Of a DNA stretch of 64,000 bases, positions 2,616-35,225 are shown piece after piece. The position numbers and the translations under genes were made by a program. Positions within the stretch are counted from its first letter, which is position 1. The number at the start of each line of letters is the position of its first letter. The DNA is taken from positions 298,016 to 362,015 of the forward strand of contig CAWKID010000003.1 in NCBI GenBank assembly GCA_963849545.1, written 5' to 3'. Under the pieces are notes generated by a model. That model worked only from the letters and a program-made list of their open reading frames with translations, had not been told where the DNA came from and ran no database searches. Origin of the DNA: an uncultured Acidobacteriaceae bacterium. Lineage in GTDB: Bacteria > Acidobacteriota > Terriglobia > Terriglobales > Acidobacteriaceae.

Positions 2616-3851
2616 ATGAGGTCTCACTTGAGATACGTTCTGGCAGCGCTGCTGTCGGCTTCATTAGTAACGGTCGCGCTGGCGGCAGAAAAGCCGGCCG
2701 GCTCCCCAGCTCCGGCTACCTACCTGCTCACCAACGACGACGGCACCGCACATAGTTACGTCAGCTTTTTCACTCCTGGTGGAACCGGGAACGCACCCAC
2801 ACTGAACTTTGGCTTCCAGATCAATAGTCTCGGCTTGGGGATTGCAGGCGGGTACTTTGGATTGCCGCGGCTTAATCTATCGCCCAGCGGCTCGACTCCG
2901 TGCGCTTACGCCTCGAACGGAGGTACCGGTGACATTGCCGGAATCAACGTCCAGACACACACCATTACCGGCAATTTCCTGGGATCGGATACGGATGCAG
3001 GCGATGCCAGCGGGATCGGTATCGTCGTAAACGATCACTACCTTTACGCCGGCTATAGCACCTCCAACACGATTGGAACGTTCGCTGTGCTTGCCGGCTG
3101 TCAACTTTCGTTTCTTGGCGACACACCGGCTGCCGGCTTGAACGGCGGCTCTGTCGCAGGTATGGCGCTGCACGGCGGCATGCTGGTGGTTGCCTACGCC
3201 GATGGCTCGATCGAGTCCTTTAATGTGTCTAATGGCCTGCCGGTATCGAATGGCGACGCGCAAAACTCGACTGCCTTCACACGCACTCCAATTTACTTCC
3301 CGGAAGGCGTTGACATTACATCCGACGGACACTTCGCCATCTTTGGCGACTCCGCGGTGAATGTCACCCTCGAGGTCTCGGATATCTCATCCGGACACCT
3401 CACGACTACGATTCCTTACACCCTGGGCGGCAGCACCAATGCAGTTGGCCCCTCAGTGCGTGCCAAGCTGTCCGGGATCAATTCCGCTTCGGTACGGCTC
3501 AGCCCCGACGAATCGCTGATCTTCATCAGCAACAATGAAGTGGGTTCAGTGTCGGCCGCGTTCTTCAATAGAACGACAGGCAGGGTTTCCGGAGGCTGCA
3601 GTTCGCCAAGCCTGGCCGGCTTTTACAACCCGTGGGCGTTTAGCGGCAGCATTGCGACCCGCGACAACAGCGGAACTGGCGGCGTACTGTATGTCGCCGA
3701 GTACAACACGGATGGGTCTTCGATTGGAGTACTGAACATTGCCAGCAACGGAACGCTGTGCGGGCTGACGGAGTCCTCCGCCTCGCAGGTGCCCGATCCG
3801 CTCAGTCCCGGGTTGCTGTCGATCGCGACCTACCCTCCGAGATCATTTTGA
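2616..3851 (+). CDS. secreted hypothetical protein, probable beta-propeller (YncE/lactonase-like repeat pattern); paralog of 5734..6975
   Basis: 411-aa ORF with signal peptide MRSHLRYVLAALLSASLVTVALAAE. Recurring strand-like blocks (YLYAGYSTSNTIGTF, VVAYADGSIESFNV, DITSDGHFAIFGD, VRLSPDESLIFISNN, GVLYVAEYN). Collinear similarity to the second copy; both end ..YPPRSF / ..FPPRPF. Confidence 0.7.
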   Translation: MRSHLRYVLAALLSASLVTVALAAEKPAGSPAPATYLLTNDDGTAHSYVSFFTPGGTGNAPTLNFGFQINSLGLGIAGGYFGLPRLNLSPSGSTPCAYASNGGTGDIAGINVQTHTITGNFLGSDTDAGDASGIGIVVNDHYLYAGYSTSNTIGTFAVLAGCQLSFLGDTPAAGLNGGSVAGMALHGGMLVVAYADGSIESFNVSNGLPVSNGDAQNSTAFTRTPIYFPEGVDITSDGHFAIFGDSAVNVTLEVSDISSGHLTTTIPYTLGGSTNAVGPSVRAKLSGINSASVRLSPDESLIFISNNEVGSVSAAFFNRTTGRVSGGCSSPSLAGFYNPWAFSGSIATRDNSGTGGVLYVAEYNTDGSSIGVLNIASNGTLCGLTESSASQVPDPLSPGLLSIATYPPRSF

Positions 3852-3955
3852 TGGCCGGCAGCGATTTGCGCCGGCCTTATTCTTTCGAGCAGCCGCGTCG
3901 AGAAGAGACAGCGGCAGAGAAAACAAGACAAAAGAAATCTGCCAGGGAGTCAGGA

Positions 3956-5557
3956 ATGCGCGCAATGCTTCGAGTTCTTTTGCTGGTGATGTTAAGCGGA
4001 ATTGCCCTAGTGAGTGCCTCGGCCCAGGCGCCGATCTGCCCGAGTCGACCGCAGCCGGGCGCGCCCATCACCAACCCAATCGATCTGTACAGTCAGAACG
4101 GCACTTTGACCGTGGACCTGACGCTGCAGAATGCAGTCGATGGCAACCAGTTCATGCACTACTGCTACGTCTACATGTATCAGGGACAGCAGATCGAGGC
4201 GCCGACGTTGCGGCTTAACCCCGGCGACACTCTGGTGATGAACCTGACGAACAACCTGCAAGCGCCCTTCGGTCCGGCTAAGGCCAAACCGATGCACATG
4301 CACAAAATGTCCGGCGCTCCAGCCGACGATTGCAATGGAAATGAGGTTCTACCCTCGTCGACAAATATGCACTTTCACGGTTTGAACGTGCCCCCGGTCT
4401 GCCATCAGGACGACGTGATCAATACCGTCATTGAATCCGGCGATCCTACCTTCAAGTACACCATCCAGATTCCGGCGAACGAGCCTCCGGGACTTTACTG
4501 GTACCACCCGCACATGCACGGCTTCACCACGCAACAGGTAAACGGAGGCGCGTCCGGCGCGCTGATTGTAGAGGGTAACAATCCACTGACTCAGGGGCTG
4601 AATGAACGGATCTTGATCTTCCGCGAGCAGACGAAGAACGGCGCTCCCGCGAACGATCCGGATGCGAACACCCAGATGACGATGAATTTCCAGCCTGCGG
4701 TTTACCCCGAGGGAGGACTGGCTGGGACGGTGACCATGCAGCCGGGAGCGCGCGAGTACTGGCGCTTCCTCAATGCCTCTTCAAAACAGTTCGCTTCCCT
4801 GCAGCTTACGTATGGTTCGACTGTGCAGCAACTGGAAGTGGTCGCCATTGACGGCGTGCAACTCGCAACCCCGCTCTTCACCGATACCTTGAATATTCCT
4901 CCGGCAGGCCGCATGGAGTTCATCGCTCCAGCTTTGCCCGCCGGTCAAACGGGAACCTTCGTGACTAACGGGTACGACACAGGAGTTGTCGGCGATGTGA
5001 ATGGCGAGCAACTGCTCTTTAAGGTGAATACCGGCACGCTGCAACAACATCAGCTGCAGATCGCCCAGCGGCCGGCGAAGCCGCCGACACAGCCAGTACG
5101 ATTCTCCAATTTGGCATCGTTGGCGCCGACCACCTCACGATCGCTGTACTTCTCGGAACAGAATGTGGGCACGAACGGCGGAACGCAGTTCTACGTTACC
5201 CTCGCCGGACAGACGCCCAAGGTGTTCCACATGGATGATCCTCCCTCGATTGTGACCAACACCGGCGCGGTAGAGGATTGGACCATTTCCAACCACTCCG
5301 GCGAGGTACACGCCTTCCACATTCACCAGATTCATTTCCTGGTGGAGGCCATTAACGGCGTGCCGGTGACCAATCCTGAGATCCAGGACACGGTGATCAT
5401 TCCTAACTGGACGGGTACGGGCCCATATCCCAGCGTGACGGTGCGCATGGATTTCCGGGATCCCAACATTGCGGGAACGTTCGTCTATCACTGCCACATT
5501 CTCGATCATGAGGACGGTGGCATGATGGCGAAGATTCAAGTGAATCCCGCAAACTGA
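3956..5557 (+). CDS. three-domain multicopper oxidase (laccase-like), secreted
   Basis: All four Cu-binding motifs are present: HFHGLNV, WYHPHMHG, HAFHIHQIHF, HCHILDHEDGGMM. I prefer the ATG at 3956 (MRAMLRVLLLVMLSGIALVSASAQA signal peptide, GGGAG upstream) over the ORF-track start 3758, which overlaps the upstream gene. Confidence 0.9.
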   Translation: MRAMLRVLLLVMLSGIALVSASAQAPICPSRPQPGAPITNPIDLYSQNGTLTVDLTLQNAVDGNQFMHYCYVYMYQGQQIEAPTLRLNPGDTLVMNLTNNLQAPFGPAKAKPMHMHKMSGAPADDCNGNEVLPSSTNMHFHGLNVPPVCHQDDVINTVIESGDPTFKYTIQIPANEPPGLYWYHPHMHGFTTQQVNGGASGALIVEGNNPLTQGLNERILIFREQTKNGAPANDPDANTQMTMNFQPAVYPEGGLAGTVTMQPGAREYWRFLNASSKQFASLQLTYGSTVQQLEVVAIDGVQLATPLFTDTLNIPPAGRMEFIAPALPAGQTGTFVTNGYDTGVVGDVNGEQLLFKVNTGTLQQHQLQIAQRPAKPPTQPVRFSNLASLAPTTSRSLYFSEQNVGTNGGTQFYVTLAGQTPKVFHMDDPPSIVTNTGAVEDWTISNHSGEVHAFHIHQIHFLVEAINGVPVTNPEIQDTVIIPNWTGTGPYPSVTVRMDFRDPNIAGTFVYHCHILDHEDGGMMAKIQVNPAN

Positions 5558-16692: not shown

Positions 16693-16968
16693 GCACTCGA
16701 GATGTGGCGCCAAATCCTTACCGCCTGTCTCTGAAGATAGCTGACAGGGTACCCGAGGATTCTCCCAATGGAAATAGTGTTTTTGCCTGATGAGGCTACA
16801 ACTTTTCGGGATGAGAGGCGGCGCCGCGGGCTCAAACAGCCCGCCGTGAAATTCTCCGCCTGTCTCTGGACCGTCAGCTCAAGGGACTTGCACTTCGCGG
16901 ACAGACGGATCCTGGGCTCGCGCGAGGCAGCCTTGGCCGGCCACCAGCAGGTATACTTTCTAAATCGC

Positions 16969-17769
16969 ATGCCCACCAAACTGGAAGAGATCATAGCCTC
17001 AACCCGGCGCAGGATTGCTGCTTCCAAAGCGTCTGCTGACGCTCGCACACTGGCCGAGGCAGCTGGGCGTCACCAGCCGCGCGGTTTTCGCGACTCCCTG
17101 AAGAAGAAGTCCGCGACGGGGCCTGCGGTGATTGCCGAGTTGAAGAAGGCCTCGCCTTCGAAGGGGCTGATTCGGGCGGACTTTCCTGTCGCGGAGCTGG
17201 CATCGGAACTGGAAGCCGCCGGCGCAGCGGCCCTGTCGGTTCTAACCGACGAAACCTACTTCCAGGGGTCGCTGCAGAATCTGGAGATCGCCTCGACAGC
17301 GACCCGGCTTCCCTGCCTGCGCAAAGATTTCATCGTCGACGACTACCAGGTGCTGGAAGCGCGCGCCTATGGTGCCGACGCAATTCTGCTGATCGTCGCC
17401 GCTCTCACGAACGAAGAGCTGTCGGCGCTGTACGCCCGCGCACGCGAACTTCAACTCGATGTGCTGTGCGAAGTGCACGACGGCGAAGAAATGTGGCGGG
17501 CGGTCGATGCGGGTTTCGACCTCATCGGCGTGAACAATCGCAACCTGCATACCTTTCAGGTCGACCTCAATACTTCTCTGGAACTCGCCTCGCGCATGCC
17601 TGCCGGCATCGTAAAGGTAGCGGAGAGCGGAATCGAAACTCGCGACGACATTGCGCGGCTGCGACAGGCCGGCTTCGACGCCTTCCTGATCGGCGAAACG
17701 CTCATGCGCGCCGCTCGCCCCGGCGATGCCCTGCGCGAACTACTAACGCCTGCGGCGGTAACCCTCTAA
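16969..17769 (+). CDS. trpC: indole-3-glycerol phosphate synthase
   Basis: MPTKLEEIIASTRRRIA... with the blocks AVIAELKKASPSKG, LSVLTDETYFQGS, PCLRKDFIVD, IGVNNRNL, ESGI, FLIGE. The ORF-track start 16768 is an upstream in-frame extension. Confidence 0.9.
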   Translation: MPTKLEEIIASTRRRIAASKASADARTLAEAAGRHQPRGFRDSLKKKSATGPAVIAELKKASPSKGLIRADFPVAELASELEAAGAAALSVLTDETYFQGSLQNLEIASTATRLPCLRKDFIVDDYQVLEARAYGADAILLIVAALTNEELSALYARARELQLDVLCEVHDGEEMWRAVDAGFDLIGVNNRNLHTFQVDLNTSLELASRMPAGIVKVAESGIETRDDIARLRQAGFDAFLIGETLMRAARPGDALRELLTPAAVTL

Positions 17770-18443
17770 TGACCCGGCAGCAGTCCATCTGGGTGAAGAT
17801 CTGCGGTACCACCAACCTGCGAGACGCTCGATTGAGCATTGCGGCAGGGGCCAACTCGCTGGGCTTTATCTTCGCCAGCAGTCCCCGGCAAGTGGATGCC
17901 GACGGCGCTGCCTACATCGTCGGCGCGGTGGCGGGCGAAGTGGAAAGCATTGGCGTGTTCGTAGACGAGTCGCCCGCGAGGGTCGGCGAGATCGCGAAAC
18001 GGGTTGGCCTGTCAGGCGTGCAACTGCATGGGGACGAACAGGCGTGGCAGATGGCTGATTTCCGCCGAGAACTTGGCCAGTTGAAAATTATCAAGAGCTT
18101 GGCAGTCAGCAGTTTACAAGATAACAGTCATTCGAAACTTGATGGTTATCTGGAGGCGAATGAGAGCCTGGACGCCATTCTTCTGGACTCCGGCTCGGCA
18201 ACGCAGCGCGGAGGAACAGGCGTTGCATTCGACTGGGAGACTGCCATGCCGATCGCCGCGCGAATTCGCGATCGCATGCCGCTGATCATCGCCGGCGGAC
18301 TGAATGCCGACAACGTCGCCCAGGCGATTGAGCTGTTTCAGCCGTGGGGCGTCGACGTCGTCTCGGGCGTCGAGAGCGTGCCGGGCAGAAAGGACGAAAA
18401 CAAGCTGCGGCAGTTCATGTCCGCCGTTCGCCAACACGCATAG
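17769..18443 (+). CDS. trpF: phosphoribosylanthranilate isomerase
   Basis: ATG overlaps the trpC stop (TAATG). Translation has VKICGTTNLRDA, GFIFASSPRQV, GVQLHGDE, LLDSG...GGTGVAFDW, IIAGGLNADNV, GVDVVSGVE. Confidence 0.9.
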   Translation: MTRQQSIWVKICGTTNLRDARLSIAAGANSLGFIFASSPRQVDADGAAYIVGAVAGEVESIGVFVDESPARVGEIAKRVGLSGVQLHGDEQAWQMADFRRELGQLKIIKSLAVSSLQDNSHSKLDGYLEANESLDAILLDSGSATQRGGTGVAFDWETAMPIAARIRDRMPLIIAGGLNADNVAQAIELFQPWGVDVVSGVESVPGRKDENKLRQFMSAVRQHA

Positions 18444-23982: not shown

Positions 23983-24723
23983 TCACTGCGCGACCGGAAT
24001 AATTCCCGCGCCCAGGATCTTCTTACTCGCCGAATCCTGCACCAGCACGGCAACTTTCAGTTGAGTGGCGTTCCAGTCGCTCTTGCGAGGAACATCGACG
24101 GTCTTCTGAAAATTGCCGCTTGCCGTCTCGCCGATTTGACTTAGTTGCCGCACGACCGCCGCATGATGCAGCGTTTTGCCGTCGTTCTCGCCCTTCCCTA
24201 CTTGCGTGCTTAGACCGTCCTCGGTGATGGCCAGCAGCACTTCCGCCTTGGTGGCTTGCGGGGAATGCACGCTGACCTGCAGACGTCCATCCCCTTCCCA
24301 GGTCAGCACCACCTGAGTGGGCTTAGGCTGTTTTGCTGCGGCTGCAATGCGCGAGCGGACCTCGCTAAGGTCGTTGCCGACGAACTGTTCATGACCGTCG
24401 ATCACCATCTGCGGCGTATACACGGAGGCATTAAGCGCTTTCGCATACTCGCCCTGGCGTTCGCTGAATTGTTTGGACGAAAAGCGGTCGGTCCATCCAA
24501 TATAGTTCCAGTAATCGACGTGCTCACCCAGCAGGATTACCTCCGCGCCCTTGGTCACAGGCTGCCGGCTCAGCTCAACCAGCACTGCGTCGGCGGGTGG
24601 GCAGCTCGAGCAACCCTCGGAGGTAAATAACTCCACTACAACCGGGTTTTGCGCCGCGCCCGGCATTTGCGAACCCAGGAGCAACAGGACGCCCGCCAAA
24701 ATCATATTAAGCATCTTTTCCAT
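23983..24723 (-). CDS. DUF1223-type thioredoxin-fold secreted protein
   Basis: Start at MEKMLNMILAGVLLLLGSQMPGAAQ. Contains ELFTSEGCSSCPPAD, HVDYWNYIGWTD and YTPQMVIDG, as in DUF1223 proteins. The ORF-track start 24885 would overlap the divergent sigma gene. Confidence 0.8.
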   Translation of the reverse strand: MEKMLNMILAGVLLLLGSQMPGAAQNPVVVELFTSEGCSSCPPADAVLVELSRQPVTKGAEVILLGEHVDYWNYIGWTDRFSSKQFSERQGEYAKALNASVYTPQMVIDGHEQFVGNDLSEVRSRIAAAAKQPKPTQVVLTWEGDGRLQVSVHSPQATKAEVLLAITEDGLSTQVGKGENDGKTLHHAAVVRQLSQIGETASGNFQKTVDVPRKSDWNATQLKVAVLVQDSASKKILGAGIIPVAQ

Positions 24724-24851
24724 GACAAAGGATGAGACCCGCGAAGCGGCAATTGGTTTCAGCCATTTGCCTGTATCTTTTGACCAGTTCGCGTATCGAA
24801 ATCTTGTGGTGTGTAGAATTGCGTACTTCGCGAGCTTCGCTATCTCTTGAC

Positions 24852-25532
24852 GTGACCGCGCAACCGCACAGTCCGGACCCTGCAACCGTTTCGGCGGCCG
24901 CCCGTGATGCCGGCTTGATCGCTCGCGTGCTGGCGGGCGAGCGCGAGCTGTTTCACGAGCTGGTGCGGCCCTACGAGAAGAGCATCTACTTCGCCGCCTT
25001 TTCGATTCTGCAGAACGAGCAGGACGCCGAAGACGCCGCTCAGGAGGCCGTGCTGAAAGCGCTAAAGAACCTGTCCAGCTTTCGCGCCGAGTCCAAGTTC
25101 AGCACCTGGCTGGTCTCCATCACCATTAACGAAGCCCGGGCGCGATTACGTCATGCGCGCGTGCTGAAGTTCGAGTCCGTCGACCAGCCCGCGGAGAACT
25201 CCGATGGCGAGTTCACGCCCGCGCTCATCACCGACTGGCGCGAGGTCCCCCTGCAGGCTCTTGAGCGCAAGGAACTGCGCGAGATGTTACAGAAGGCCAT
25301 CGCCGGGCTGCCGGATATCTATCGCGAGGTACTGCTGTTGCGCGATGTTGAAGATATGAATATTGCCGACTCGGCAAAGGCGCTCGGAGTGAGCGAAGGA
25401 GTGGTGAAGACGCGGCTGTTGCGGGCGCGGCTGATGATGCAGAAGATTCTGGCTCCGCAACTGAAGTCGAAGACGGGCAGCAGGGGCCTGTTTGGATTGT
25501 TTCGTAACAAGGCAGGTGGCGCATGGTTCTGA
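24852..25532 (+). CDS. ECF-type RNA polymerase sigma-70 family factor
   Basis: Region 2 (ELFHELVRPYEKSIYFAAFSIL..DAEDAAQEAVLKA..FRAESKFSTWLVSITINEA) and region 4 (LPDIYREVLLLRDVEDMNIADSAKALGVSEGVVKTRLLRAR). The GTG start at 24852 is my choice; start uncertain. Confidence 0.85.
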   Translation: MTAQPHSPDPATVSAAARDAGLIARVLAGERELFHELVRPYEKSIYFAAFSILQNEQDAEDAAQEAVLKALKNLSSFRAESKFSTWLVSITINEARARLRHARVLKFESVDQPAENSDGEFTPALITDWREVPLQALERKELREMLQKAIAGLPDIYREVLLLRDVEDMNIADSAKALGVSEGVVKTRLLRARLMMQKILAPQLKSKTGSRGLFGLFRNKAGGAWF

Positions 25533-25765
25533 ATTGCCAACACGTGTGGGATCAAATCTCAAACTACATCGATGGCGAGGTCCCGCCGGAGATGCGCGAG
25601 GCCATTGAAGAACACCTGGCCCACTGCCGCCACTGCGCCGCGGTGCTGGATTCGACGCGGAACATCCTGTATTTGATCGCCGACGAGCGCACATTCGAGC
25701 TGCCGGTGGGTTATAGCGACAGGCTGCATGCGCGTTTGAAGGAGGAGATCGGCAGCAGCGAATAG
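25523..25765 (+). CDS. anti-sigma factor, zf-HC2 type, short cytoplasmic form
   Basis: 80 aa, overlaps the sigma gene stop by 10 nt. H-x3-C-x2-C motif EEHLAHCRHCAAVL. Confidence 0.8.
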   Translation: MVLNCQHVWDQISNYIDGEVPPEMREAIEEHLAHCRHCAAVLDSTRNILYLIADERTFELPVGYSDRLHARLKEEIGSSE

Positions 25766-25889: not shown

Positions 25890-26879
25890 ATGAACGAGAC
25901 GCTCCAATTCGTGGTGCAATACGGCTATGTCTTGCTGTTTGCGTGGGTGTTGGTCGAGCAGGGTGGCCTGCCGATCCCCGCTACACCGCTGCTGCTGGCC
26001 GCGGGCGCGCTCGCCGGCCGCGGACGTATGCACTTTCCGCTGGTGATCCTGGTGGGCACCGCAGCCTGTCTCGGGGCGGATATTTTCTGGTACTCGTTCG
26101 GAAAGCGCCGCGGAGCCGTGGTACTGAATCTGCTCTGCCGCATCGCGCTGGAACCTGACTCATGCGTGCGCCGCACTGAAACCCGCTTTGCCAACTGGGG
26201 TCCGCGCACCCTGCTGTTTTGCAAGTTCGTGCCTGGACTCAACACGGCCGCGCCGGCGCTGGCCGGCATGATCAATCTTCCCTACGCCCGCTTCCTGCTC
26301 TTCGACCTGATTGGAGGATTGCTGTGGACACTGGCGTTTACCACGCTGGGATTTGTGTTCAGCAAGCAACTCGACCGCGTAGCTGCCGACGCACATCTGC
26401 TGAGCGGATGGATCCTGATTGTTTTTCTGGGTGGCGTCATTGCTTACGTGTTGTATCGCTGGCGGGAGCGGCAACGATTCATCGAACAGGTGAAGGGCGA
26501 CCGCATCACGCCTGATGAATTGAAGCATGAGTTGGAAGCCGGCGAACGGCCGACCATCATCGACTTGCGGCATCCGCTGGATGTGCTGACCGATCCGCGC
26601 ACCCTGCCCGGAGCGCTGCAAATTTCACCCGAGGACCTGGAGAAGCGGAACAACGAGATCACGCGCGACGGGGAGATCGTACTCTTCTGCACTTGACCAA
26701 ACGAAGCGACCAGCGCCCGGGTGGCGCTGAAACTCCGCAAGCACGGGATTCGCCATGTGCGTCCGCTGCTGGGCGGCTTTCATGAGTGGAAGAGTTTGGG
26801 ATTTCCGTTGGTGGATATTTCCGAGCCAGGCCCGGAACTTCCCTCCGCCAGCGCGCGTTTCGCAACCGAAGAACAATAA
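25890..26879 (+). CDS. DedA-family membrane protein fused to a C-terminal rhodanese domain; single in-frame TGA at 26694-26696 in the rhodanese active-site loop
   Basis: The N-terminal 190 aa are DedA/SNARE-associated-like (LLFAWVLVEQGGLPIP, FCKFVPGLNTAAP). The rhodanese half reads ITPDELKHELEAGERPTIIDLRHP...GEIVLFCT[TGA]PNEATSARVALKLRKHGIRHVRPLLGGFHEWKSLGFPL. The frame stays open to the TAA at 26877-26879. Confidence 0.8.
26711..26729 (+). promoter_or_regulatory. hairpin 14 nt downstream of the in-frame TGA (SECIS-like candidate)
   Basis: CAGCGCC-CGGGT-GGCGCTG, a perfect 7-bp stem with a G/U-containing 5-nt loop. It lies in codons for SARVAL, so it may be coincidental. Confidence 0.3.
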
Positions 26880-27003
26880 CCGGGTCGATCTTCCCTCTTC
26901 GTTCTTCGCAACCACACCGTAATTTTTGTGGCGATCTTCCACAGTCAGTGCAACAATCGCGGCATCGCTAACCTTCGATCAGACGACGGAGCATTGCGCC
27001 ACA

Positions 27004-27273
27004 ATGCCGAATTTTAAAGAGCGACACTACCTTTGTGAGAGCACGTCCAGCGGCTTCGACAAAGTACTTAACCCTGGCGACCTGGCGCCGTTTCCCGGAA
27101 TTTACCGTTGCGAGTCGTGCGGGTATGAGTGCGTCTCCAAGAAGGGTCACCCTCTGCCTCCAGGCGAAAGCTGTGCGAAACACGAATCGGGCTGGAGGTG
27201 CGAAGATGGTGTGGTGCGCTGGCGGTTAGTAGCTGCCGCAATTCATATGAAAAGGCCTTCTACTCGCAGCTAG
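27004..27273 (+). CDS. small Cys-rich hypothetical protein
   Basis: MPNFKERHYLCESTSSGFDKVLNPGDLAPFPGIYRCESCGYECVSKKGHPLPPGESCAKHESGWRCEDG... has CxxC plus further Cys/His, possibly a zinc ribbon. No family recognised. Confidence 0.45.
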   Translation: MPNFKERHYLCESTSSGFDKVLNPGDLAPFPGIYRCESCGYECVSKKGHPLPPGESCAKHESGWRCEDGVVRWRLVAAAIHMKRPSTRS

Positions 27274-31462: not shown

Positions 31463-32178
31463 TCAGTTCGAGCCCGAGGCCCTCGGTGTTCCCTCCGGAG
31501 CGTTGACCCCGGGAATGACAACGTTGCTTTCGATCTCAGCCTGCTGCCGCAGATTGTGCAGCCACGCATCGAGCATCTCGTCCATGCGCTGCTGCGTGAG
31601 CAACTCGCGGATGCGTGGAGCCACGTCAGGCAGCGCGACAACCGTCCCGCCGGTCTTCTCCAAGTCGGGAATCAACTGGTTACGGTAGTAGGCTTCAACG
31701 TCTTCCTCCTGCACGTGAACCGCAGGACGCAAGCGCACTTCGATGAAGTTCATCGTTTGAAACTCGATCCGCAGATGCTCCTTCAGCTGCGCCTCGTTCA
31801 ATCCGTACCGGCCCAGCAGGTCCCGCCACGCCAGGTCGTCCTTGCCGTTTGGCACCTGCGCCGCGCACTTTGTCGATGTCCTGCTGCAACGCGTCGTCCT
31901 TGGGCTGCATGTAGGCGGCGTCGCCCATCTGCGCCTTCAATAGCTGGCGATCGATCAGGTGCTGCAGCGCGAGCACGTGGTCGGCTTCGCTTAAGTCGGT
32001 CAGTCGTCTTCTGCTGCATGAAAGCTTCAAAGCGAACCGCCTCGTCCCAATCGCTGCGCAGAATCGGCTGACGATTCACCGTCGCCACGATGCCATCAAT
32101 CACGTCGCCCGCAAACACCGGCAGCGCCACGCTGAACAACAGCGCACAACAAATCGCGAAATGGAAAATTCGTTTCAT
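31463..32178 (-). pseudogene. SurA N-terminal-domain-like periplasmic chaperone, two +1 frameshifts
   Basis: MKRIFHFAICCALLFSVALPVFAGDVIDGIVATVNRQPILRSDWDEAVRFEAFMQQK (ORF 31798..32178). Then LTDLSEADHVLALQHLIDRQLLKAQMGDAAYMQPKDDALQQDIDKV (31695..32030). Then NGKDDLAWRDLLGRYGLNEAQLKEHLRIEFQTMNFIEVRLRP... (31463..31855). Confidence 0.6.
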
Positions 32179-35100
32179 CAGAAAGTTTGTCCAATACTGA
32201 AAAACACGTTGATCCGTCGCAGCGACAGCGTCTGGTCTGTCTCCTGCACCGGATAGCGTGTCGGGTTTAAGGCATAGCCAAGATCGAAGCGCACCGGGCC
32301 GACAGGCGTCTTGTAACGAATACCCATGCCCAGCGCTTGTGAGTCATAGTTGAAGTTGCATGGAATCTTGCTGTTGGGCACCGAGCACTCGGCGATCGAC
32401 GGCTGATGAAAGCGCAGCATTCCGCTGATGATGTGGTTTGCCGTATCGAAGACATTGCCCATGTCGTGGAAGAAGACGAACCCCAGATTGTTGCCTACGT
32501 ACGGCAGCGCAACGGGCGGCGTGCGAATTTCAATGTTGTTAACAAACAGCCCCTGCCCACCGATCGCGTAGCCCGTCTGCGGATCGCGCGGGCCGGCCTG
32601 GTTGATGGAGAAGCTGCGCAGCGAATTGCTGCCGCCGGCGAAGAACAATTCCGGCAGCGGAATCTGGGTCGCTTCCACCGGCAGATTGCTGTCGGGCGGC
32701 AGCACGATGAAGTTGTTCGTGCCATACGGCTTCTCGATGCCGATCTGCGTGCGACGCGCCAGCACCCAGTGCTTGCCGAAGGTGTAATAGGTCGAATTGT
32801 CCAGCAGCACGCGCCCGAAGTTCGTTTCCGAGCCCAGCGCGCTGGTGGCCAGCCCCAGGTTCAGCGCGTTGTAACTCCCCTTCGTCGGATTGATGGGATC
32901 GTCGCGACGGTCGCGCACCCCCGTGAACATCGGCATCGCGATGAATACCGGCTTCGAGTACAGCGCGATCAACGTGGGATCGATCACCAGGCTGTTGGGA
33001 TCGACCTTCACCCGCTGAAACGTCAGGCCATAGAGAAGCGTGGTAAAGCGGTTGTAGCGCTGCTCAGCCTGCACCGCGCCCTCCAGCCGTTCGGAGGCGA
33101 AGGTATTTACGTCGGCAGTGTTGTCGTACAGCGCGGTGAAAATGATCCGCCAGTTCTCGCGATGAAACAGCCGCGGCGCATCGTAGCTGATCAGACCCCG
33201 GCGCGTCAGCAGGCCAAGCCGGCCGCGGAAGGTGAAGGTCTGGTCGCGCCCAAACAGGTTCAGACGCGTGATCTCCAGCACACCGATCGGACTGACGCCG
33301 GTTTTTCCGTTGCGGATTACTGGTCGTCGGGATGTTGCCGGTCGCGAACTCGATGCCACCGCCGTAACGGAAGGTCCAACGCCGCGACTCCTGGATGTTG
33401 AACAGCACGTCCTTGCTTGGCTCGATGCCCTCCGGGTTCTGCACCGCCATGTCGACTTCGTTGAACAGGCCCAGGTTGTACAGGCGACGCTGCGAGTCGA
33501 CCATCCGGCTCTGACTGAGTGGATCGTTAGGTCGAATGCGCATCTGCCGATTCACGATGTACGGCCGCGTGTAATTCAGTCCTGTCACCAGAACGCGGTC
33601 GACGAAGACACGCTGCACCTTCGCGTGATCTTGTAAATCACGTTCATGCGCTGCGGATTGTCCCGGCGCCGGCGTCGACGACGCCTCAAACTCCACATTC
33701 GGAAAGCCCTGGTTGTAGTAGTAATACGTAATCGCATCGCGATCGTTAGCGATGTTGGCCTCGCTGAACGGCTGCCCTTCTTCGTTGCTGAGGCTCGGCT
33801 CCAGGGCCTCCAGGTTGACGCTGGTTGCGCCCTCCACCGTCAGTCTGCCGACCAGCGTCTGCGGACCTTCTTCGATCTTGAGCAGCACCTCCATCTCGTT
33901 TTGCTTGCCCTGGTAGTCGTCGATCAACTCGCCGTTGACCTTCACCTCCAGAAACCCGTTGGCCAGGTACAGATACTTGATCGAGCTGACATCCTCGGCC
34001 AGCAACTGCTGGCTGAAGCGGCCGTTGCGCATCACAAAGCTCGATGGCTCAACCGCCATCCGCTCGCGAATGGCTTCGGTGTTGAAGTACTTGTTGCCTT
34101 CCACCTTCACCGCCACCAGTTTGTGGCGCACGCCGGGATCGATCTTGTAGACGATGTCGAGATGGCTGTTTTGCGGATCGGGCTTACGTTCGACATCCAC
34201 CGTTGCGTCGAAATAGCCCTTCGTCTGCAGGTAGTCGCGCAGGTTGCGCCGGCCCTCGTTCAGCAAATCGTCGTCAACCGAGTTCTCCTGGTAGACCGGC
34301 ACCAGCTTCTTAAGCTGGCCCTTGCTGACGCCGTCACCTTCGGTCGCGATGTTGACCGTCGGCCCCTGCTCGACCTGGAAGACGTAGTCGAGCCGGTCGG
34401 TGTCCACGTGGTAGCGGCGATCGATCAGCGTGACCTGCGCCTCCAGGTGCTGCGTTCTTCTGGTAGTGCTTGCGCAAACGCTCCAGCGCCTTGGTCACGC
34501 GGTCGGTATTGACGCGCGCACCCTCCTTCAACTTGGTCAGGCTGCGCACCTGCTCGGCAGGAATGCCAGCATCGCCCTGGATGGTGACCGCTCCCACGCG
34601 CGCCAGGTCGCCTGGCACCACGTGGAAGTAGATTGCCATCTGATTGTCGCTGGGATTCGGCTTCAACGAGTACGTGATCACCGCTTCGTAGTAGCCGTTG
34701 TCGGCCATGATTTTCTTCATGCGATCGACGGAGCTGACTACCTTGTCTTCGGTGAAGACGTCTCCCAGGTCGAGCTGGCTGGCCGCAACCAGCTGGTGTG
34801 GCTTTGGATTTCCTTTTTGCGGCGTTCCGTCGACGGTGACCACTCCGTTGAAGTAGTTCTCCGTGACCACGAAGATCAGCCGGACGCGATCCTGCGAAAC
34901 CGGCTCGGCTTCCACACTCAGCGTGGCGAAGCGCCCGGTGGCGTACAGCGTCTTGATACTGGAGCGCAGCTTCTCGCGATCCAGCGGCTGGTCCACCTGC
35001 TGCGCCAGCAGCGGCCGCAGTCGCGCGGGATCGTTGCCGCTGATTCCACGGAAATCGATGCCTGTAACGGTCCAGCCGTCATATTTGTTGAGAGATCCGG

Positions 35101-35225
35101 TGGAGTAGGTGGCGTCCGATTGCGTCTGTGCCGGCGGCACCCGATGACTGCGCATGCGCCAATCCGCCCATGAGGCTGCAGGCAATCGCGAGCGTGCACA
35201 GCAATGGCGTCTTCGGCGTCTTCAA
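32178..35225 (-). pseudogene. bamA: Omp85-family outer membrane protein assembly factor BamA (multi-POTRA + beta-barrel), at least 6 +1 frameshifts
   Basis: TTG start MKTPKTPLLCTLAIACSLMGGLAHAQ (frame of ORF 35079..35324). POTRA-type blocks lie in ORFs 34334..35185 and 33064..34407 (VTGIDFRGI, VVTVDGTP, VGAVTIQGDAG, VAVKVEGNKYF, RLTVEGATS, VLVTGLNYTRPYIV). The barrel lies in 32178..33359, ending ..NVFFSIGQTF (terminal aromatic). The stop overlaps the next gene's ATG. Confidence 0.85.

Follow-up and report, generated by a model that had tools for sequence, protein, structure and literature searches.

In a 64,000-nucleotide stretch of DNA from an uncultured Acidobacteriaceae bacterium (assembly GCA_963849545.1, contig CAWKID010000003.1, positions 298,016 to 362,015 of the forward strand; this whole stretch is the window, and its own coordinates are used below), a gene for a DedA-type membrane protein fused to a rhodanese domain has a TGA within its reading frame. 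The frame, on the + strand, runs from the ATG at 25890 to the TAA at 26877-26879, and this TGA, at 26694-26696, is its sole interruption, the translation around it being ..GEIVLFCT-(TGA)-PNEATSARVALKLRKHGIRHVRPLLGGFHEWKSLGFPL.. As annotated, the open reading frame (ORF) 25890-26696 (+) is the part upstream of the TGA, ending at it, and is 268 amino acids (aa) long. Is the TGA a stop, an error or a codon with a special meaning? From the comparisons set out here it is very probable that the gene is that of a real DedA-rhodanese selenoprotein and that UGA 26694-26696 is read as selenocysteine (Sec). That was the proposal of an initial annotation made from the letters of the window, and it gains support from the conservation of the TGA, the alternation of Cys and Sec in its column, selection downstream, the fit to a selenocysteine insertion sequence (SECIS) and the match to a CxU rhodanese family. 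The features at issue, with the evidence for each, are as follows.

25890..26879, + strand: whole predicted DedA-rhodanese selenoprotein gene, 329 codons including that of Sec269, then TAA (translation, Pfam, tblastn through the TGA)
25974..26351, + strand: DedA/VTT membrane domain, residues 29-154 (PF09335, 51.3 bits against a cutoff of 33.9)
26508..26795, + strand: rhodanese domain, residues 207-302, spanning the TGA (PF00581, 36.4 bits against a cutoff of 22.2)
26688..26690, + strand: Cys267 codon TGC, the canonical catalytic Cys and first residue of C-x-U, where U is Sec (aligned to 3tp9)
26694..26696, + strand: UGA, predicted Sec residue 269 (TGA in relatives, Cys in Cys forms, U of TKB26178.1)
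26697..26710, + strand: spacer between the UGA and the hairpin, 14 nucleotides (nt), codons P-N-E-A and the start of T (invariant length)
26711..26729, + strand: SECIS-like hairpin, stem 26711-26717/26723-26729, apical loop 26718-26722 CGGGU (RNAalifold, frozen synonymous sites)
26877..26879, + strand: true stop TAA (translation)

Conservation of the TGA and of the frame beyond it

Re-translation agrees with the initial annotation that the frame is open from 25890 to 26879 except for the one TGA, and its further claim, that a well-formed C-terminal half of a rhodanese follows the TGA, is in keeping with the Pfam domain at residues 207-302 running across that codon. For the Pfam search the joined protein was used with the TGA taken as Cys; the rhodanese match takes in model positions 1-101 of 102 and, as it spans the TGA, a true stop there would cut the fold at the active-site loop. 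In an alignment with PDB 3tp9, Cys267 pairs with the active-site Cys, the loop here being two residues longer, and the TGA position is two residues past this canonical catalytic Cys, which is invariant across all Sec forms and all forms with Cys in place of the TGA. An AlphaFold2 (AF2) model of a 68%-identical Cys form has a mean predicted local distance difference test score (pLDDT) of 85.6 and, after the Sec/Cys column, a helix (273-284), a strand (290-293) and a further helix (296-302) with pLDDT of about 90 or more; as modelled, these post-TGA elements belong integrally to the rhodanese fold. The top Foldseek matches are single-domain rhodaneses or sulfurtransferases at a root-mean-square deviation of 1.8-2.5 Å, and the closest solved folds also include those of rhodanese domains in persulfide dioxygenase and in CoA-persulfide reductase.

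A scan that took one genome for each species gave 80 loci, with 51-91% identity, in metagenome-assembled genomes (MAGs) labelled Acidobacteriaceae, Korobacteraceae or Terriglobales, and the tblastn matches in these 80 genomes cross the TGA, reaching residues about 310-329. As in the window, TGA is present at exactly this codon in 79 of the 80 species-level genomes, and a codon table built from 79 sequences has TGA in every one of them (79/79); its context in the relatives is [FY]-C-T-TGA-P-N-E-(A/S)-(T/S)-S-A-R, with the downstream frame open and conserved. The exception, locus L065 (10797-10860), has TTA and then a 1-nt deletion. It is a second copy in the MAG of locus L016 (MFD05502.bin.1.220), is otherwise identical to L016 over the compared stretch, and is probably a duplicate contig laden with errors, or else a pseudogene. 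Another locus, L002 (DATHQX010000221.1), is labelled Verrucomicrobiia, yet its protein is 85% identical to the acidobacterial protein of the window, and that contig is probably mis-binned.

How has such a gene been represented hitherto? The gene callers and public annotations examined all end it at the TGA, as a 268-aa 'VTT domain-containing / DedA' protein, and in the public records examined the last 60 codons, which encode half of the catalytic domain, are left 'intergenic'. A protein search with the joined sequence gave the same picture, with about 115 of the best 120 clusters being exactly 268 aa long and ending ..LFCT (65-91% identity). The protein is systematically mis-annotated as one of 268 aa.

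The substitution pattern on the two sides of the TGA indicates that the codons after it are translated and under purifying selection. For the 20 codons upstream the proportions of synonymous and nonsynonymous differences (pS and pN) are 0.57 and 0.15, with a ratio of nonsynonymous to synonymous change (dN/dS) of 0.15, and for about 40 codons downstream, the hairpin left out, pS is 0.61, pN 0.12 and dN/dS 0.11; the hairpin codons themselves, +5 to +12 from the TGA, have pS 0.08, pN 0.03 and dN/dS 0.35. Conservation fades in the last ~15-20 codons, dN/dS being 0.6 for codons +40 to +49. The constraint sets in at the very first codon past the TGA, where Pro is invariant while all four CCN codons are used, and P-N-E-A-T-S-A-R as a whole is nearly invariant (8 substitutions among the 640 residues of the 80 genomes). 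Among the spacer codons, the third positions of CCN and GCN vary freely, and AAC and GAA hardly change. The earliest codon that could serve as an internal start, the GTG at 26721, would give a formal 52-aa ORF, and since it is GCG in 14 genomes there is no conserved start there and the tail is not translated separately. Nor has the genetic code been reassigned, as TGA terminates 14 of the 32 long ORFs in the window, and a systematic scan of all the fetched loci for other conserved in-frame TGAs gave none apart from the present one and echoes of this gene in other frames.

What occupies the TGA column in more distant relatives? A control set of Cys forms (80 metagenome loci and L083, 81 loci altogether) has TGC or TGT there within one unbroken, contiguous frame, and the motif is C-x-C-P-[NS]-E with both Cys invariant. 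Most of these forms have ~270-320 codons of ORF upstream and align to the window protein over 306-325 residues, from which it follows that most are the same DedA-rhodanese fusion. The statement in the initial annotation that relatives read C-x-C-P-N-E is borne out by these sequences, and the homologue alignment that it had named as a check has Cys in this column in the Cys forms and TGA in the relatives counted above.

The hairpin and the exchange of Sec and Cys

The hairpin, CAGCGCC-CGGGT-GGCGCTG at 26711-26729, is perfect over 7 base pairs (bp), starts 14 nt after the TGA and has a loop that starts 21 nt after it, which is as the initial annotation had placed and measured it. In this sequence alone it is weak evidence: folded by itself, the 76-nt region has no more stability than shuffled sequences (z = -0.01), and 18 of the 1844 TGA triplets of the window (~1%) are followed by a hairpin of SECIS-like geometry that is perfect over 7 bp or more, for which reasons thermodynamics alone is not relied upon. 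The comparative evidence is a different matter and goes far beyond chance. Codons +5 to +12 are ACC AGC GCC CGK GYG GCG CTG CAA (K being G or T, and Y being T or C), and the Thr, Ser, Ala, Val, Ala and Leu codons of the stem, though 4- or 6-fold degenerate, have entropies of 0-0.2 bits, against a mean of 1.39 bits where comparable codons lie elsewhere than in the stem (Mann-Whitney p = 1.1e-4). Just three single changes are found in the stem, C-G to U-G, G-C to G-U and, at the terminal pair, a mismatched C-A, so that two of the three retain pairing through G-U and the third breaks the terminal pair. The loop variants are CGGGU (52), CGUGU (13), CGUGC (13) and CGGGC (1). In the RNAalifold consensus the hairpin 26711-26729 is the only structure, and a 27-nt segment folds with a free energy (dG) of -12.5 +/- 0.5 kcal/mol in all 79 TGA forms, compared with -6.2 +/- 3.2 kcal/mol for the same segment in Cys forms (p = 2e-25). 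Taken together with the alignment, the freezing of synonymous sites indicates that selection at the RNA level acts on the hairpin.

The published model for bacterial SECIS (bSECIS) elements has an apical loop of 3-9 nt on a stem of 4-16 bp, with a G at loop position 1 or 2 and, usually, G or U next to it, a UGA-to-loop distance of 16-37 nt, and a minimum free energy of -7.5 kcal/mol or lower (PMC13188914). Every TGA form lies within all of these bounds, with its 5-nt loop C-G-[G/U]-G-[U/C], 7-bp stem, 21-nt spacing and dG of ~-12.5; the spacing thus falls in the SECIS range, as the initial annotation had stated. As in Escherichia coli fdhF and in the consensus model of bSECISearch, the UGA is followed by a stable stem-loop within the coding sequence that has G and then G or U early in a small apical loop; compared with fdhF, the loop here is ~3 nt farther from the UGA, and a bulged U is absent.

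In the Cys forms the Ser, Ala, Ala and Leu codons equivalent to those of the hairpin are free to vary, with entropies of 1.5-2.0, and those Cys forms that encode S-A-R-V/A-A-L fold partially, at -3.5 to -10.7 kcal/mol, which suggests that the SECIS arose where the coding sequence was already inclined to be palindromic. Exchange in the other direction also seems to have occurred. In a neighbour-joining tree, 78 TGA forms make up one clade, and nested in it is a single Cys form, L083 (P0027; 10001-10993), which has TGT at the codon, shares 80% identity with L059, a Sec form, and still has 6 of its 7 stem pairs in place, a pattern such as a recent reversion from Sec to Cys would leave. L079 and L080, two TGA forms that are divergent, have the same hairpin, yet are placed among Cys forms outside the main Sec clade, with the nearest relatives of L080 being the Cys forms L163 and L154, which have a partial hairpin. 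Their placement points to Sec and Cys having been exchanged more than once, or to frequent losses. A single origin of the Sec form was considered and is not established, with L079 and L080 lying where they do.

Decoding of the UGA: selenocysteine and its alternatives

Among known selenoproteins the nearest is the rhodanese-like 'form 3' (form 2 of COG0607), which has the motif CxU, is modelled by NF041203 (rhodanese_LYCAU) and has TKB26178.1 as an example (PMC13188914, PMC9312934). The latter reads ..IVLYCAUPNEYTSARLAQKL.. (PMC12013277 supplement). The window rhodanese domain is 36% identical to it (BLASTP, E = 1e-19), with its U aligned to the TGA, and NF041203, 'rhodanese-related (seleno)protein', is the best NCBIfam match of the window protein. 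Shared features are the rhodanese fold, Sec two residues past the catalytic Cys and the loop C-x-U-P-N-E-x-T-S-A-R, so that LFCTUPNEATSAR of the window stands beside LYCAUPNEYTSAR of TKB26178.1 and has the C-x-U of NF041203. That rhodanese-type selenoproteins are known in bacteria had been stated in the initial annotation, and this recognised CxU family is one that the site fits. The NF041203 proteins stand alone, at about 126-150 aa, whereas the window domain is the C-terminal part of a 329-aa DedA/VTT protein, and the window-type proteins form a Terriglobales clade of their own, apart from that family. What is involved is a DedA-fused relative of the CxU family, sharing its site and predicted chemistry and falling outside it on two membership criteria: it is no stand-alone single domain, its rhodanese being fused C-terminally to DedA/VTT, and its score is below the cutoff of the model.

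On the Sec reading, the product would be one inner-membrane protein of 329 residues with an N-terminal DedA/VTT domain and, after the last transmembrane helix, a rhodanese domain whose active-site loop would be Cys267-Thr-Sec269-Pro-Asn-Glu. The UGA at 26694-26696 would be recoded to Sec by the standard bacterial route, the hairpin 26711-26729 within the coding sequence serving as the SECIS that recruits SelB with Sec-tRNA(Sec) to the ribosome. Sec would stand where an ancestral C-x-C redox pair had its second Cys, and would most likely make a selenenylsulfide with the canonical rhodanese Cys or take a persulfide or perselenide from it, and the outcome may be a more reactive sulfur/selenium-transfer or thiol-redox site tethered to a DedA transporter.

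Several observations weigh against this reading. The NF041203 score is 74.3 bits, short of the cutoff of 115 (E = 6.7e-21, model positions 18-123 of 126). Rfam searches, at gathering and at permissive thresholds, gave no match to a SECIS model, nor to one for tRNA-Sec. True compensatory covariation is absent from the stem in the 79 TGA forms, which is due to the stem being invariant, and the argument for the hairpin is accordingly one of suppressed synonymous change. The residues S-A-R-V-A-L by themselves favour a partial hairpin, and some Cys forms fold at -7 to -11 kcal/mol. Finally, no selA, selB, selD or tRNA-Sec is present in the 64-kb window or in ~2 Mb of loci, a result that is expected for pieces of ~20 kb: a tRNA scan of the window and 60 loci gave no tRNA-Sec, and tblastn with E. 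coli SelA, SelB and SelD gave no match in the window or in the first 80 loci (pieces up to ~21 kb). Absence of sel genes from pieces of ~20 kb is not evidence that the genomes are without them.

A broader search was made with Solibacter SelA (PMC1794560 supplement) as query, and found only Bryobacteraceae-like clusters, at >71% identity; in a search of 50%-identity representatives with cluster look-up, the acidobacterial SelA clusters lie on contigs of 2.3-2.9 Mb, none of them in common with the DedA loci. Acidobacteria have been credited with three selenoprotein families (PMC1794560), and Occallatibacter riparius DSM 25168 has been treated as a Sec user, with FdhA, AhpD-like and deiodinase-like selenoproteins (PMC12013277). 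That cultured species is of the order Terriglobales, as are the relatives of the window, and by analogy it is the only, and indirect, support for Sec machinery in these genomes, where decoding by SelB and tRNA(Sec) would have to take place.

Might the UGA be read, but as something other than Sec? An opal-suppressor tRNA or a near-cognate one could insert Ser, Cys or Trp independently of any SECIS, with the hairpin being only a stimulator of pausing or readthrough, and this would accord with the negative searches for Sec machinery in the pieces of these genomes described above. Acidobacteria have 8/4 and 9/3 allo-tRNAs that are capable of nonsense suppression, and other phyla have a tRNA-Cys(UCA) of the selC* type that depends on SelB*, but selC* has not been reported in Acidobacteria (PMC5389517). 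Such readthrough is unlikely when the UGA falls exactly on an invariant redox Cys and aligns with the U of an accepted selenoprotein family, and when the hairpin, strictly fixed in its geometry, satisfies every bSECIS constraint. General suppression would be costly, since TGA ends many ordinary genes here, and Cys inserted via UGA would bring no gain over TGC, yet the TGA has been kept at near-saturating synonymous divergence (pS ~0.6). The SelB-type site, motif and hairpin geometry, together with non-Sec insertion being no better than a sense codon, are why the allo-tRNA proposal is rated low.

That the TGA is a real stop, leaving a 268-aa DedA protein with a rhodanese stub and a tail that is either a decaying remnant or a separate small protein, is what gene callers and annotations in effect assume, and GTG 26721 could start the 52-aa ORF. 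It is very unlikely, for conservation begins with the first post-TGA codon while synonymous change is free at the CCN and GCN codons, the downstream dN/dS is as low as 0.11, the GTG is replaced by GCG in the 14 genomes mentioned, the helix-strand-helix downstream is integral to the modelled rhodanese fold, and the Cys forms are contiguous. A sequencing or assembly error, or a recent pseudogene with TGC changed to TGA in this genome, might be thought of in view of the apparent indel-type disruptions in the window (the split BamA-like gene below) and of the TTA with its 1-nt deletion in L065. The same TGA, however, recurs in 79 independent species-level assemblies made with differing technologies and in >100 protein clusters, and the downstream constraint is intact, so that this is hardly conceivable; the simple TGC-to-TGA substitution or error that the initial annotation had allowed as its alternative is excluded by the conservation across genomes.

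Membrane fusion, neighbourhood and significance

The Cys-form DedA-rhodanese fusions, annotated as 'VTT domain-containing protein' or 'rhodanese-related sulfurtransferase' and widespread in soil and peat metagenomes, have the same architecture and active-site loop as the predicted selenoprotein, with TGC or TGT for TGA and the hairpin codons unfrozen. The N-terminal ~195 residues match the VTT domain as do those of DedA family proteins such as the UptA undecaprenyl-phosphate transporters; the scores for the DedA and UptA NCBIfam equivalogs are below cutoff (63 against 236 bits and 56 against 250 bits). TsoB, a selenoprotein described as rhodanese/DsbD fusion-like ('form 5', UxxxxU, NF045694; PMC13188914), is comparable, by its description, in having a Sec-bearing rhodanese domain joined to a membrane-embedded module. 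It differs, again by description, in that its partner is DsbD-like where here it is DedA, in its Sec motif and in having two Sec. In the literature no report was found of a DedA protein as a selenoprotein or of DedA, rhodanese and selenocysteine together, and no paper was found linking Koribacter or Sulfotelmatobacter with selenocysteine.

On which side of the membrane is the rhodanese domain? A positive cluster, RWRERQR, directly follows the last transmembrane helix, and from it the domain is probably cytoplasmic and membrane-tethered. At 28 Sec-form loci (within L036-L077, and L166), and at the nested Cys form, a CusF-SCO1/SenC/AhpC-TSA (redoxin) gene lies ~150 nt upstream on the same strand, and at 9 other loci an RND efflux operon (OEP, MFP, ACR_tran) takes that upstream place; such neighbours may hint at a connection with the homeostasis of copper or thiols. 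The neighbours of the nested Cys form L083, CusF-SCO1 and a phosphorylase, are as at L166. In the window itself, 23983-25765, just upstream, has a DUF1223 gene on the - strand, its product bearing a CSSC motif, and genes for an ECF sigma factor and a zf-HC2 anti-sigma factor. The sigma/anti-sigma pair was considered as a conserved functional link and rejected, this arrangement being present in only 3 loci.

Other features of the window may be noted. Directly downstream of the gene, ORF 26926-27273 (+) is small and Cys-rich (..CESCGYEC..C..C..); it matches no Pfam model, and the 80 related loci contain no relative of it. At 3758-5557 (+) lies a gene for a three-domain multicopper oxidase, and trpC (16768-17769) adjoins trpF (17466-18443). 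A BamA-like gene at 32178-35185 (-) is split into ORFs 34334-35185 and 33064-34407, which have POTRA repeats, and a third, 32178-33359. The split of this essential gene looks to be of the frameshift type, and the assembly therefore probably has indel errors. The initial annotation had taken every other disruption in the window to be a +1 insertion; a spot check of this covered the BamA-like gene with its several ORFs.

What, then, might the protein do? The best guess, made with low confidence, would have the Cys-Sec pair serve a DedA-type transporter through redox chemistry or sulfur/selenium transfer, in a setting of metals, thiols or envelope stress. Selenite uptake has been connected with a DedA protein from C. 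metallidurans, in a work cited in PMC8679861. A bolder and unlikely proposal is that of a dedicated membrane device for selenium or reactive-sulfur traffic, in which the DedA-type transporter would be coupled to the Cys-Sec rhodanese. The latter would trap what is imported, in the form of a perselenide, persulfide or selenenylsulfide, and hand it on to recipients, for instance SelD, or to partners in metal or thiol homeostasis such as the frequently adjacent CusF-SCO1/SenC protein. If true, it would bear on the specific system for selenium uptake and delivery that has long been missing in prokaryotes.

Irrespective of such a role, recognition of the predicted Sec codon sets right the gene's annotation for at least 79 species of Acidobacteria, which are abundant in soil and peat, and adds to the CxU rhodanese selenoprotein family a membrane-fused architecture beyond the reach of the current NCBIfam model. 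It predicts the Sec-decoding trait for Korobacteraceae and related lineages. The family may also provide a natural example of a SECIS arising from coding sequence that was already partly palindromic, and one in which Sec and Cys can be seen interconverting, as in the nested reversion with 6 of 7 stem pairs. It would join a DedA transporter, of a family that was once connected with the uptake of selenite, to a sulfur/selenium-transfer domain that contains Sec.

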